From Kineococcus radiotolerans SRS30216 = ATCC BAA-149 (GTDB lineage Bacteria; Actinomycetota; Actinomycetes; Actinomycetales; Kineococcaceae), in the NCBI RefSeq assembly GCF_000017305.1, contig NC_009664.2, positions 1,440,001-1,472,000 on the forward strand: a stretch of DNA of 32,000 bases, read 5' to 3'. Below, one piece after another: positions 3,057 to 6,646 of this stretch. Positions within the stretch are counted from its first letter, which is position 1; each line of letters starts with the position of its first letter. The notes beneath the pieces were generated by a model that searched no databases, was not told the origin of the DNA, and was given only the letters and a program-made list of their open reading frames with translations. Position numbers and translations under genes: made by a program.

Positions 3057-3099
3057 GTGGGCCCCCAGGGGATCGAACCCTGAACCCGCGGATTAAAAG
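3057..3099 (-). repeat. displaced 3' fragment of tRNA-Lys (distal att repeat of the islet)
   Basis: gtgggcccccaggggatcgaaccctgaacccgcggattaaaag is identical over 43/43 bp to 6573-6615. The flanking bases differ on both sides. Confidence 0.9.
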
Positions 3100-3213: not shown

Positions 3214-3463
3214 AGGACTGGATGCCTGTGCAGTAGCAACTACCCCCAAGTAGGCCATGCCGAAAGCAACGGGCTTGGACGTGGGTCCAAGGTCATGGGC
3301 CTTGGTAGGGGGCAGGGGCCGCCGGCGGTCATGGCGACCGTGGCGCGAGCGTCAAAGGAACGTGACCTACGGACGAGTGGTCAAAGTCTGGAGTGTCAAC
3401 CACATCCACACTCGAAGGGCGCCGAGCCATGGGCTCCCTCAGTGACGTCCTGCACTTAATGCT

Positions 3464-3495
3464 TTGCGGTGCAGAGCATTTGCGGTGCAGAGCAT
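3464..3495 (+). repeat. perfect 16-bp tandem duplication ttgcggtgcagagcat x2, followed by two further TGCGGT copies (to 3532)
   Basis: 3464-3479 equals 3480-3495. ctgcggtag lies at 3496-3504 and ctgcggtgcc at 3522-3531. Confidence 0.7.
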
Positions 3496-3726: not shown

Positions 3727-4167
3727 GTGGCTGATCAGTATGCACACGAGTGCCGCATCCGTGACGCCTACTCGCAACGCCTGAGGGAATTTCGCCCCAA
3801 GGAGCGAATGCTCAATACGGAGCATCCCTATGCCAATGGTCGATTACGTGCAGACCTGCGAACGATCGATGATGAGGGCGTCCGCCGCATATGGGAGTTC
3901 AAAATTTCTGCCGGCTATGGCGCACTGGGTCAGATTCTGACCTATCTGGCGCAAGCCAGAAAGGATGCGCTTTTCGAGTCGACTGTACGCGGAGTTCTTG
4001 CCGCCTTTCACTTCCATCAGGAAGTGTGGACGACGGTTGAAGTACTAAACCTCGGCATTGAATTAGTAGTTATTCCTGAAAAGTTGAGCATGGCCGGTGG
4101 CGTGCTCAGTCCACCGACGGGCTTCCGTGCCCCCCAAATTCCTAAGCTGCCTCCGGCTTCATCCTGA
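3727..4167 (+). CDS. stand-alone NucS/DUF91-like PD-(D/E)xK nuclease
   Basis: 146 aa from a GTG start with RBS gagga 6 nt upstream. Ordered motifs: E8, D43 (RADLRTID), E57-x-K59 (IWEFK), Q69-xxx-Y73 (GQILTY), then VRGVLAA. This matches the pattern ...D(I/L)L..D..G..v.iE.K......v.Q.l.Y......vRGilvA of NucS-type nuclease domains. Confidence 0.65.
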   Translation: MADQYAHECRIRDAYSQRLREFRPKERMLNTEHPYANGRLRADLRTIDDEGVRRIWEFKISAGYGALGQILTYLAQARKDALFESTVRGVLAAFHFHQEVWTTVEVLNLGIELVVIPEKLSMAGGVLSPPTGFRAPQIPKLPPASS

Positions 4168-4190
4168 CCCAAAACCCAAGAAAGGCAATC

Positions 4191-5693
4191 ATGGCGATCC
4201 CATCGATCCCCAAGAACCAACTCATCCCCAATGATCAGATTCCTCGGAGTGACCTTTTCGGTGGACTTCGGATCGTTCGGTATCAGGCTGATCCGGCAGC
4301 ATGCGATGCCTTCAATCAGAACCGGTATGAGTTCCAGTGGGAGCAGGAGGAGCGACATGTCATTCCAGGGGCCACGCTTGCAGTTAAGGGGGCCCCTTCG
4401 AACTATCGGATCACAGCTATGATCCATCCGACCTTGAAGCAATTCATAGATATCGTGAAATATGACCCTTCTGCGCCCCCTATCGAGGACTATGAGGCTC
4501 TCGAGATGAAGGATGCGCACGATCAGACGCAGCAAGATTTCAAGGGGGCCAAGAAGGAGAACCTGGCAAACTTCAAGCAGTACAACGTCGAGGCGGTACG
4601 GGGTGACCGTATTGCCTACCTGCCACCTATTAGTGGGTGGCAATCAAGTGTCGTATTCGATGAAACGATCTTTGTGGCATTCGATGAGCCTAGCGACCTG
4701 GTCCTATATGGGCAGTTGTATCTGCCTAAGAGTCCGGTCATGCAATCGGATGGCCAGACGCAGACGGCGGCCTTGTTTCAGGCGGCTCAGACTGGGATTG
4801 CCATAAAGTCTGGCGCTCTCAAGCGATTCGGCGTCACAATGGAGATCGAACTCAATGTCACGTCCGAAAAGGCCGCGCAGAGCTTCGCCGACCGCAATGG
4901 GCGCGGGTCAAAGAAGAATAAAAACCTCGTGGCAGTCATGGACAGTTCTTCGGCGTTGGCAAAGCTTCGCGGTCAGTCCATTCAGGGAACCATTTTTGAC
5001 AAGCGACTCGCTGACGGGCGGACGGTGGGCGCAACCGAAACTGCCACCAAGAACATCGTGGACTTGTCCACCATGGATCAAATGCTACTGAACGTCGTCT
5101 CGCGCGGAAGTAAGAAGCCCGAGCAGATCAAGCACTACCACGTCCAGCACCTGCTTCCCTTCTGTCGAGATTTCATCGAAATGCTAGAGGGGCAGTTCGG
5201 CAGTGCATGGCTAGACCCGACCCCCAAGGACAGTGAACCCTATCGCCGCATTTATGTTCACGGGTGGGCTTTCGCGCTAAAGGCGTTGGCGCTGGCGTAT
5301 CACGACGTTCGGCGAAGTGAAATCCATCCATATGCCACGTCCATCGGGACGACGGGCATGGACGAGCACACTACGGCCGAGGAGGCCGAGGCGGCTTTCC
5401 TTAAGGCTGTTGCGGATGCACCTTCGGCAACGTCCGTCCTCAGTGTCGCTGAGTTCGAGGACAGGTTGGGGCAGATTGACTGGCTTCGTTACCGGAAGCA
5501 CTGGATTGCGCTGACTGGCTACAAGTTGGATAGGTCGGGAAGTAAGAAGCGTCGCGAGATCAAGGACGGCGCCTCGAAGAAGGTCATCGTTGAAGGAAAG
5601 GCTGAAAATACAGCTGCCGCCATCAACAGTGTCGTGAGAAAGATCCTCTCAGACACTTGGACTGACCTCACGCACCATGAAGACGAGAAGTAG
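4191..5693 (+). CDS. DndB-like DGQHR-domain (ParB/Srx-fold) protein, motif variant DGQTQ
   Basis: 500 aa from an ATG with RBS gaaagg, 23 nt after the nuclease gene. DGQTQ at residues 187-191 (nt 4749-4763), preceded by YGQLYLPKSPVMQS. Downstream AAQSFADRNGRGSKKNKNL resembles the conserved (F)aDlN...v segment of DGQHR/DndB proteins. G+C is roughly 50-55% by eye. Confidence 0.65.
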   Translation: MAIPSIPKNQLIPNDQIPRSDLFGGLRIVRYQADPAACDAFNQNRYEFQWEQEERHVIPGATLAVKGAPSNYRITAMIHPTLKQFIDIVKYDPSAPPIEDYEALEMKDAHDQTQQDFKGAKKENLANFKQYNVEAVRGDRIAYLPPISGWQSSVVFDETIFVAFDEPSDLVLYGQLYLPKSPVMQSDGQTQTAALFQAAQTGIAIKSGALKRFGVTMEIELNVTSEKAAQSFADRNGRGSKKNKNLVAVMDSSSALAKLRGQSIQGTIFDKRLADGRTVGATETATKNIVDLSTMDQMLLNVVSRGSKKPEQIKHYHVQHLLPFCRDFIEMLEGQFGSAWLDPTPKDSEPYRRIYVHGWAFALKALALAYHDVRRSEIHPYATSIGTTGMDEHTTAEEAEAAFLKAVADAPSATSVLSVAEFEDRLGQIDWLRYRKHWIALTGYKLDRSGSKKRREIKDGASKKVIVEGKAENTAAAINSVVRKILSDTWTDLTHHEDEK

Positions 5694-6455
5694 GCGCTCA
5701 TGACGCCTCATTGAGTCGGCATCCTGCGGTGGTGGGGTCGAGACCGGCGCGCCAGCGCCGCAGCTCGGCCCCACCACCGCAGTCTTGAAGGGGTTCCAGA
5801 AGACGCACAGCTCGCGTCCGACCGTTGTGATGCCTTCGGTGGCGTTGCCCGGTGGCAACCCGGCTCGCTTGGCCGTCGCGTGCAACTCGCTGCGGTCGTA
5901 GACGTCCTCAACGACGTACGCGCCATCGGCAGGTACCGGCGCCATGTCGCGCGACTCATCAGCCCCGGAGAGCTGCAGGCGCTGCAGGAAGTGTTTGAGC
6001 GCAGGCGGCTCGCGCATCGTCCGGCACAGCACGTCGATGGCGGACGTGCGGAAGGACGGGTCGTCACGCATCAGGTCGTAGACGTCCGGATGCAGGCCTC
6101 CTCGCAAGTCACCCTTCTTGACGGCGTCACGTGGCCTGCCGGGGGGAAGGGGCTGCCCCTGCAGCTCCCACCACGACGTCGCACGAAGAGCTGCCCAGGG
6201 CAGAGCCGGATCCGGCTGCGTGCTTGCGACCGCGAAGGGACGCAGCAGGCTCTGCAGCTCCGGTGCCGCCGCCGAGTAGCTCTCGAGGCGCGGCAACGCT
6301 TTCACCGCGCGGCTGATCGCTCGCAGCAGGACGACCTGCTGGTATACGGCCGCCACCCCGGTCTGGCGGTCGACGCGGAGGTCGCGCAGCTCAGAGAGGA
6401 GTCTTGCTTGCTTCGAGTGCTCCGCGGCCATGATCCTTTTGTAGCTGAAAGCCAC
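5649..6455 (-). CDS. SBD-like/winged-helix DNA-reader module protein related to the N-termini of ScoMcrA-type HNH restriction enzymes; apparently truncated (no nuclease domain)
   Basis: The N-terminal ~165 aa follow the pattern I recall for this family: L..LR..r..G....(H)KPlLLL.Ai.RA...l.r....a..eL..LL..f.......p..P(F/W)aaLr.d..WeL ... g.L.pdv..l...dP.l...a...L. Observed here: VYQQVVLLRAISRAV, LPWAALRATSWWEL, GGLHPDVYDLMRDDPSFRTSAIDVL. Protein-like sequence ends near FWNPFK (about nt 5785). The remaining ORF runs through the hairpin into the low-GC cassette and overlaps the convergent gene by 45 bp. Confidence 0.5.
   Translation of the reverse strand: MAFSYKRIMAAEHSKQARLLSELRDLRVDRQTGVAAVYQQVVLLRAISRAVKALPRLESYSAAAPELQSLLRPFAVASTQPDPALPWAALRATSWWELQGQPLPPGRPRDAVKKGDLRGGLHPDVYDLMRDDPSFRTSAIDVLCRTMREPPALKHFLQRLQLSGADESRDMAPVPADGAYVVEDVYDRSELHATAKRAGLPPGNATEGITTVGRELCVFWNPFKTAVVGPSCGAGAPVSTPPPQDADSMRRHERLLLVFMVREVSPSV
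5724..5782. terminator. long hairpin (14-bp perfect inverted repeat) just downstream of the DGQHR-type gene
   Basis: ctgcggtggtgggg (5724-5737) and ccccaccaccgcag (5769-5782) are exact reverse complements. The 31-nt spacer contains ggcgcgcc. The hairpin starts 31 nt after the TAG at 5691-5693. Confidence 0.4.
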
Positions 6456-6524: not shown

Positions 6525-6572
6525 AGAGGGAGTGCGGTACAAGATCACGCGACATCGTCGCAGGTCAGGAGG

Positions 6573-6615
6573 GTGGGCCCCCAGGGGATCGAACCCTGAA
6601 CCCGCGGATTAAAAG
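6573..6615 (-). repeat. tRNA-proximal att repeat (within tRNA-Lys)
   Basis: Identical to 3057-3099. It spans from the anticodon loop (cttttaatc) to one base past the discriminator. Confidence 0.9.
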
Positions 6616-6646
6616 TCCGCTGCTCTGCCGATTGAGCTAGAGGCCC
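6574..6646 (-). tRNA. tRNA-Lys (anticodon UUU)
   Basis: The reverse complement GGGCCTCTAGCTCAATCGGCAGAGCAGCGGACTTTTAATCCGCGGGTTCAGGGTTCGATCCCCTGGGGGCCCA folds as a 73-nt cloverleaf. It has a 7-bp acceptor stem with one G-U pair, anticodon loop CT-TTT-AA, and T-arm GGTTCGATCC. CCA is not encoded (CCC follows). Confidence 0.95.

Follow-up and report, generated by a model that had tools for sequence, protein, structure and literature searches.

What do a small predicted nuclease and a DndB-like protein do together when they are found as a pair in a tRNA islet? The question is raised by two genes in the 32-kb stretch of Kineococcus radiotolerans SRS30216 DNA analysed here (the window, whose positions are used as coordinates throughout): G1 (3727-4167, forward strand), an open reading frame (ORF) of 146 aa with a GTG start, and G2 (4191-5693, forward strand), an ORF of 500 aa with an ATG start. 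A preliminary description of this DNA had likened the pair to a split GmrSD, a type IV enzyme. We tentatively propose, as a reading that falls a little short of being probable, that G1-G2 is instead an alternative restriction module of Dpd-type restriction-modification (R-M), in which the 7-deazaguanine mark protects DNA, and that it is present in K. radiotolerans as an orphan cassette. The analysis directly supports the folds of the two proteins, their invariant catalytic residues, the strict pairing of the genes, their recurrent embedding in dpd operons and the swapping of the pair within one operon slot.

The G1-G2 pair

The residues by which G1 had been assigned to the PD-(D/E)xK nucleases of the NucS type are all at the positions given for them (E8, D43, E57, K59, Q69 and Y73, with VRGVLAA at 87-93). 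D43, W56-E57-F58-K59, Q69 and Y73 are invariant in 19 G1 homologues, and D43 and E57-x-K59 are the candidate catalytic residues. In Foldseek, the AlphaFold2 model of G1 (predicted local distance difference test score, pLDDT, 86.7), which consists of a nuclease domain only, finds its best matches in the nuclease domains of P. abyssi NucS and T. kodakarensis EndoMS (2vld_A and 5gke_A; E 1.3e-6, TMq 0.64, root-mean-square deviation 1.9 Å over 110 columns). MspJI and Card1 follow, and the AspBHI nuclease domain is also among the matches. The fold match, together with the invariant D43 and E57-x-K59, places G1 in the PD-(D/E)xK superfamily, and the earlier view of it as a minimal, NucS-type member stands.

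No significant match to G1 was found in the profile libraries, the best being NCBIfam NucS (NF003270) with E 0.003, which scores 16.5 bits (equivalog cut-off 216) over profile positions 150-225 of 250 only. Pfam NucS_C (PF01939) does not match the window protein, and weakly matches 10 of the 19 homologues. G1 shares with NucS/EndoMS the C-terminal PD-(D/E)xK fold and the D-x13-E-x-K and Q-x3-Y spacing. However, its 146 aa leave out the N-terminal DNA-binding/dimerisation domain of the two-domain NucS/EndoMS architecture, and it is paired with G2 on mobile DNA, outside a repair context. Since this domain is lacking and the score is far under the cut-off, G1 is not a NucS orthologue. We found 79 homologues, with identities of 45-61%. 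Among 1.84 billion representative proteins there are 92 matches (33 at E<=1e-30); those at E<=1e-10 are nearly all 65-200 aa long, apart from two fragmentary ones of 231-255 aa, and the weaker ones, from E~1e-9 up, are two-domain DUF91/NucS_C-type proteins of ~220-260 aa. No fusion of G1 to G2 or to another sensor was seen among the 92, and none of the strong matches is fused to a further domain. On its modelled fold, G1 is a stand-alone NucS_C/DUF91-type PD-(D/E)xK protein with predicted nuclease activity.

G2 has more than 240 homologues of ~500 aa (50-71% identity) in Actinomycetota, Bacillota, Pseudomonadota, Acidobacteriota, Bacteroidota and Gemmatimonadota. The motif DGQTQ lies at residues 187-191, as described before, and D187-T192 (DGQTQT) is invariant in 20 of 20 homologues, so that the arginine of the family motif DGQ(H/Q)R is missing. 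Further invariant features are QSFADRNGRGSKKNxNLV (230-247), R352..H357-G-W and the blocks QSDGQTQTAALF, DLSTxxQxLL and YRRxYVHGW. Pfam DndB (PF14072) aligns only to residues 186-377 of the window protein (profile positions 103-283 of 338; 23.7 bits, cut-off 29.1), which contradicts the claim of a DndB match along the whole length, and TIGR03187 reaches 20.8 bits against a cut-off of 58.85. The curated cut-offs are missed, and it is at the level of the superfamily that the proposed kinship with DGQHR/DndB proteins is upheld: 18 of 20 family members match PF14072 at E<=0.01 (best 3.7e-12), and the G2 model (pLDDT 86) matches DndB, GmrSD-N and ParB-like folds among the predicted viral structures of BFVD (E 1e-5 to 1e-3). 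In an hhalign comparison with the DpdB profile, G2 is collinear over 152-359, with DGQTQ on DGQQR and QSFADRN on QFILINN. The DpdB models (NF041060 and PADLOC DpdB) are matched neither by the window G2 nor by that of the contig L047, and the full G2 model finds nothing significant in the PDB with Foldseek (best E 0.87; Fpg/MutM with a probability <0.1). PDB sequence searches with the G1 and G2 family profiles returned nothing.

G2 is a divergent protein of the DndB/DpdB superfamily (ParB/Srx-like), a superfamily relative rather than a curated member. It has in common with DndB/DGQHR proteins and with DpdB, a DGQQR ATPase, the core ParB/Srx-like region with collinear FVAFDE, DGQ.., QxFxxxN and R..HG elements. 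In contrast to them, it invariantly has Thr-Gln in place of His/Gln-Arg, and it carries additional N-terminal (~150 aa) and C-terminal (~120 aa) domains, which are family-specific, so that only residues ~150-380 form the superfamily core. The arginine of DGQ(H/Q)R is required for nucleoside triphosphatase (NTPase) activity in SspE, GrwAB and DpdB (PMC10164549, PMC12137116). As this residue is invariantly Gln in G2, an NTPase function is doubtful, which weakens the earlier idea of an NTPase sensor, and the loss constitutes a new variant of the ParB/DndB fold. The invariant R352-x4-H357-G-W (residues 352-359) aligns to the invariant SRLxHG of DpdB, and its R352-x4-H357 part resembles, as a sequence pattern, the Rx4-6H signature of HEPN domains. 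Makarova et al. are said to have assigned, in 2013, a HEPN domain to the C-terminus of DndB.

The two genes travel as a unit. A G1 relative lies directly upstream of G2, on the same strand, in 33 of the 34 species genomes with a G2 relative, the sole unpaired locus being that of the most distant G2 (33% identity). The same pairing is found in 4 of 4 IMG/VR viral contigs and in most metagenome contigs with sufficient sequence ahead of G2, so the expected conservation beyond this genome is borne out. Across the loci the genes overlap by 1-4 nt or are separated by at most 26 nt; this tight arrangement suggests coupled translation and a complex, and G1 and G2 would thus be predicted to associate physically. 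The pair is conserved across at least six phyla, most commonly in the two-gene form. It is absent from complete E. coli genomes and from GenBank phages, and gave a single match among plasmids, in Sinorhizobium; it was also found beside a type I-C CRISPR locus. The preliminary description knew no system name for the pairing, and none exists in PADLOC v2, PHROGs or NCBIfam, where only sub-threshold matches were obtained (PDC-S11, E 0.003; NucS, E 0.003). RefSeq names both genes "hypothetical protein", even beside annotated dpdA and dpdB. In the literature searched the pair is not described, and an earlier mention in a figure or supplement is possible.

Linkage to dpd clusters

Clustering of the ORFs that flank the pair brought out a recurrent gene set, which was named with Pfam, NCBIfam, PADLOC and RefSeq. 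This set consists of QueC, QueD, QueE, FolE2, a YhhQ/VUT transporter, DpdC, DpdA and one or two DpdB. The neighbouring DpdA reaches 551 bits (NCBIfam equivalog cut-off 200) and DpdB 371-471 bits (cut-off 300); DpdC is present either as DUF6884, the family to which DpdC corresponds (bioRxiv 10.1101/2025.02.24.639861), or as a shorter protein that resembles DpdC. A distance of no more than 8-10 kb separates the pair from DpdA or que genes in 9 of the 34 species genomes, in the long contigs L047 and L048, in nine further metagenome contigs and at the Sinorhizobium plasmid locus, where RefSeq names DpdA, two DpdB and QueC/D/E. The dpd-linked loci amount to ~20, or roughly a third of the informative ones, most contigs without dpd/que neighbours being too short to be informative. 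The DndB-like gene had been taken for an orphan unrelated to dpd, and the pair had been expected not to turn up as part of a larger dnd, dpd or ssp cluster in relatives; with so many loci that embed or abut dpd clusters, neither view holds.

In three contigs (L047, L048 and L067) the order is queC-queE-queD-folE2-dpdC'-dpdA-dpdB-G1-G2, with all genes co-directional, and in L024 it is G1-G2-dpdC-dpdA-dpdB-queE-queD-queC. L062 and L064 have a co-directional cluster of 12 genes, from queC to dpdB-dpdA-dpdB, then G1-G2, a UvrD-like helicase and a PDDEXK_1 nuclease, in which the stop codon of several genes overlaps or abuts the start codon of the next. Two DpdB in addition to G2 are not rare, dpd clusters often having several DndB-like paralogues. 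In the G2 tree, the dpd-linked sequences turn up on different deep branches, which indicates that the linkage is old or has been re-formed repeatedly, and is not a single inherited accident. DndC, DndD and DndE families were absent from the annotated neighbours in the window and in ~50 loci with annotated or profile-searched neighbours; G2, unlike DndB, was not found in dndBCDE clusters.

The reference for such clusters is the Dpd R-M system, dpdA-K of Salmonella Montevideo (PMC10164549). Bona fide DpdA, DpdB, DpdC-like and preQ0-synthesis genes accompany relatives of the pair, G2 is itself a paralogue in the DpdB/DndB superfamily, and the host species is among the organisms with experimentally validated Dpd modification. 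In contrast, no dpdD-K-type gene (DpdD, the helicases DpdE/F/J, DpdG/H/I or the PLD nuclease DpdK) was found among the annotated neighbours in the pair-containing dpd loci examined, where no systematic search was made; the restriction position is held instead by the 146-aa NucS_C nuclease and the DndB-like protein that lacks Arg, to which a UvrD helicase and a PDDEXK nuclease may be added. The pair is absent from the one canonical dpdE-F-G cluster sampled, that of Tautonia.

An orthologous modification operon of seven genes is shared by five contigs, with 70-92% amino-acid identity, and these differ only in what comes after dpdB: G1-G2 in two, an HNH protein with a DGQHR protein in one, and nothing in the other two. 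As orthologous operons exist without the pair, it is dispensable for modification, and as the contents of the slot swap, it is exchangeable with another pair of a nuclease and a DndB-like protein. Most simply, G1-G2 would be the effector, or restriction, half of the system.

The HNH and canonical DGQHR genes that occupy the slot in L056 (12527-14577) have a counterpart in L022 (870-2815), where a similar pair lies beside G1-G2. This looks like a second undescribed cassette of a nuclease and a DndB-like protein. It resembles G1-G2 in combining a small nuclease with such a partner and, in L056, in holding the identical post-dpdB slot of an orthologous operon, and it differs in that the HNH fold is unrelated to G1 and the canonical DGQHR protein of L056 has no BLASTP similarity to G2.

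A four-gene form, in which G1-G2 is joined by a UvrD/GajB-like helicase and a Cas4-like PDDEXK_1 nuclease, is found in L007 (9679-13138), L032 (2920-6365) and L059-L064 (L062, 11593-15179; also L059, L060, L063 and L064), both with and without adjacent dpd genes. It mirrors the helicase and nuclease content of the canonical dpdD-K. L027 has a different UvrD and a giant NERD-PDDEXK protein.

Two further observations concern these clusters. A conserved 221-aa protein is encoded between folE2 and dpdA in L047 (6419-7084), and also in L048, L055-L057 and L067; it is weakly DpdC-like (PADLOC, E 7e-5) with no Pfam or NCBIfam match, and in Hymenobacter (L027, 9546-11648) it is fused to the DpdA N-terminus in a protein of 700 aa overall. 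In addition, pairs that otherwise stand alone in Nocardia and Streptomyces have, at a distance of 4-6 kb, ORFs of the VUT/YhhQ family of queuosine-precursor transporters (L009, 3397-3963, and L010, 15180-15713, respectively), which may reflect a remnant of a deazaguanine link or mere chance.

Proposed restriction of unmarked DNA and other readings

Our proposal would work as follows. G2, as a DpdB/DndB paralogue without the NTPase arginine, would bind DNA and read the presence or absence of the 7-deazaguanine mark at Dpd target sites, and G1 would be recruited or licensed by G2 to cut mark-free DNA, the module being extended in some lineages by the UvrD-like helicase and a second PD-(D/E)xK nuclease. 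Stand-alone copies would be orphan restriction cassettes that rely on dpd genes elsewhere in the genome. The pair of K. radiotolerans, alone in its foreign tRNA-Lys islet, would likewise act in trans with a host Dpd modification encoded elsewhere. This strain is reported to encode a DpdA, ABS05840 (PMC5699537), and 7-deazapurine derivatives are reported as experimentally validated in K. radiotolerans DNA (bioRxiv 10.1101/2025.02.24.639861), which implies that the pair is tolerated in a host with modified DNA. Our own DpdA profile search gave 6265 matches, and the 120 listed, mostly metagenomic, do not include the K. radiotolerans protein. The broader form of the proposal, that G1-G2, with or without the UvrD-like helicase and PDDEXK nuclease, is the minimal restriction core replacing dpdD-K in a distinct and widespread class of 7-deazaguanine R-M, that it also circulates alone on prophages, integrative and conjugative elements (ICEs) and tRNA islets, and that it reads the K. 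radiotolerans marks in trans, we regard as possible and put forward with more reserve.

The polarity, i.e. whether the mark protects or exposes DNA, is where this proposal parts from type IV (modification-dependent) restriction, in which G2 would sense hypermodified, e.g. 7-deazaguanine-containing, phage DNA for G1 to cut. In many loci, the pair is co-directional with genes for preQ0 synthesis and for insertion into the cell's own DNA, often directly after them. One would not expect a deazaguanine-triggered nuclease to share a transcript with the enzymes responsible for installing the mark, and a simple nuclease of this kind would attack the host, since K. radiotolerans DNA carries 7-deazapurines (bioRxiv 10.1101/2025.02.24.639861); that this organism, with modified DNA and a DpdA, keeps both ORFs intact also favours the R-M polarity. 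We therefore consider type IV restriction unlikely. Under this reading the pair would be a split, PD-(D/E)xK-armed analogue of GmrSD, GrwAB or TgvAB; the original analogy with a split GmrSD is hard to square with co-transcription alongside genes for modified-base synthesis and insertion. The pair does resemble the GmrSD family, including GrwAB/TgvAB, and SspE in joining a ParB/DUF262-superfamily sensor to a nuclease, sometimes in two genes, and two-gene DUF262 systems against 7-deazaguanine DNA are known, e.g. GrwAB, which has this DNA as its target (PMC12137116). However, its nuclease is of the PD-(D/E)xK and not of the His-Me/DUF1524 type, G2 lacks the arginine for the NTPase-coupled sensing of GmrSD-type enzymes, and neither a DUF262 domain (with QR/DGQQR/FxxxN) nor a DUF1524 domain was found in G2 or its family with Pfam, the likeness being confined to the fold level, with viral GmrSD-N models. 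The link of the pair to modification genes points to the opposite polarity. In favour of type IV restriction, the pair stands alone, with no modification genes nearby, in typical defence-cargo sites of prophages and ICEs, the MspJI and AspBHI nuclease domains are among the structural matches of G1, and genes of the type IV kind lie in its vicinity: a sulfur-binding domain (SBD)-HNH and an Mrr_cat gene on an enterobacterial ICE (L038-L041), an SRA_ScoMcrA gene in L047 and, in the window, the SBD-only ORF3 described below.

The slot swapping bears also on a third possibility, that the pair is an accessory or regulatory factor of Dpd modification, with the DndB-like G2 acting on dpd expression or DpdA site choice and G1 processing DNA intermediates. 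In dnd systems, DndB has a regulatory role (PMC4507180), dpd clusters commonly possess several paralogues of the DndB kind (two DpdB and G2), and the ATPase Arg is missing from G2. Against this, near-identical modification operons occur without the pair, or with the HNH and DGQHR proteins instead, the pair is common without any dpd gene nearby, also on phages and ICEs, the catalytic residues of G1 are invariant, and the four-gene form adds helicase and nuclease partners, all of which make such a role quite improbable. It is likewise improbable that the pair is merely inert cargo in this genome, left over from a larger element that has lost its integrase and helicase-nuclease partners. The islet has no integrase and a heterogeneous G+C content (55% in the pair, 66-67% in the rest), and the closest relatives of the window G2 (62-65% identity) include four-gene forms, whose helicase and PDDEXK nuclease are missing in the window. 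Yet both ORFs are intact, with ribosome-binding sites and all family-invariant residues, and the two-gene form is the commonest across phyla.

Several observations weigh against our proposal of an alternative Dpd restriction module. The pair of the window is physically apart from any dpd gene: tblastn with DpdA, DpdB, QueC, QueD and QueE found no dpd/que genes in the 32 kb, so DpdA and DpdB are encoded with the pair in the ~20 relatives' loci and not here. The earlier statement that neither dnd nor dpd genes are present thus holds for dpd and que, and needs qualifying for the phosphorothioate side, as ORF3 has a phosphorothioate-DNA-binding domain. In about two thirds of the loci the pair is by itself, and mobile elements are frequent carriers: it sits between int/xis and cI of a Pseudomonas prophage, lies at one end of a Bacillus prophage, adjoins the integrase of an enterobacterial ICE and is present on the 4 IMG/VR contigs. 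On such elements an unprotected restriction nuclease would be toxic unless the host carries dpd. According to GATOR-GC, dpd islands of Actinomycetota are mostly complete, and a complete island in this host would make the pair superfluous as "the" restriction arm. On the protein side, the hhalign link between G2 and DpdB is weak (E 0.005, probability 6.7%), and G2 lacks the NTPase Arg and resembles no solved structure. The functions assigned to the pair are predictions based on folds, sequence conservation and genomic neighbourhood.

The restriction of unmarked DNA by Dpd systems is still to be explained, the canonical arm consisting of eight large proteins with unclear roles. Should our proposal be correct, a two-protein arm (146 and 500 aa) on DpdA/DpdB chemistry would be far easier to use for studying how the reading of a mark is coupled to cleavage. 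The dpd islands that lack the restriction operon have already been catalogued (bioRxiv 10.1101/2025.02.24.639861) and Dpd variants such as BRIGADE have been described (PMC12458937); many "modification-only" islands may carry or exchange small cassettes of a nuclease and a DndB-like protein. What would be new, and this we hold with some hesitation, is a compact effector module that offers an alternative within a known defence based on modification. Should the pair prove to be a type IV enzyme dependent on deazaguanine, it would instead provide a new anti-phage tool against Queuovirinae-type phages. With either polarity, it is a gap in the PADLOC, PHROGs and NCBIfam libraries searched.

The tRNA-Lys islet

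The physical description of the cassette given earlier proved accurate. G1 and G2 are intact, on the same strand and separated by exactly 23 nt, each with its own ribosome-binding site (GAGGAG 5 nt ahead of the GTG of G1; GAAAGG ahead of the ATG of G2). Both have a G+C content of 55.1%, against 66-67% in the rest of the islet and 72-74% in the flanks, and the 60-nt counts cited for them and the host (25/60, 37/60 and 41/60) are exact. The islet, too, is tRNA-bounded as proposed: it spans 3.5 kb between an intact tRNA-Lys(UUU) gene, the integration target (6572-6646, reverse strand; ARAGORN, Rfam tRNA 67.6 bits), and a 43-nt direct repeat, free of mismatches, of the 3' portion of that gene (3057-3099, unstranded; 100% identical to 6573-6615), which is the distal att-like boundary. 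No integrase was found within it. The islet is small and horizontally acquired, of the type left behind by tRNA-targeting integrases, though the integrase is gone. Its flanks consist of housekeeping genes, for a GtrA-like protein, an aldehyde dehydrogenase and an amine oxidase.

A contig of 3533 bp (L035/L036, Logan) recurs in the short-read assemblies of K. radiotolerans runs from at least 20 samples. Its length equals the unique part of the islet (3473 bp) plus 2 x 30 nt; assuming k=31, it would represent a break of the assembly graph at the 43-nt repeat, and gives no evidence for an excised circle.

The third gene of the islet, ORF3 (5649-6455, reverse strand), encodes a protein of 268 aa that has a ScoMcrA-type sulfur (phosphorothioate-DNA) binding domain and lacks an HNH domain. 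NF045808 matches its N-terminal half only (E 2e-6), and the precomputed assignment is PF26340, DNA-SBD_ScoMcrA. Its G+C content at third codon positions is ~0.8 up to codon 250. ORF3 is convergent with G2, which it overlaps by 45 nt. We considered it as a third component of the module and rejected this, as no homologue adjoins the pair in ~100 other loci; since it never accompanies the pair elsewhere, ORF3 is an islet neighbour. Beyond the tRNA, Rfam gave only sub-threshold matches, which we take as chance, including a Guanidine-II riboswitch inside ORF3 (6286-6339, forward strand; 23.5 bits against 32, E 0.12).

A consensus scan of the islet for promoters and terminators found sites no more frequently than in shuffled sequence. 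In the 627-nt stretch between the 43-nt repeat and G1 there was no significant match (two ORFs searched against Pfam, two against PHROGs). A repeat search located a 19-nt inverted repeat of 95% complementarity with a 21-nt loop (5724-5782, unstranded), 31 nt past the G2 stop and within the 3' part of ORF3; it is absent from the output of the T-run terminator scan, and is a possible transcription stop between the convergent G2 and ORF3. The same kind of search found a perfect tandem 16-mer, TTTGCGGTGCAGAGCA x2 (3463-3494, forward strand), ~230 nt upstream of G1, which is possibly regulatory (an operator) or a repeat remnant.

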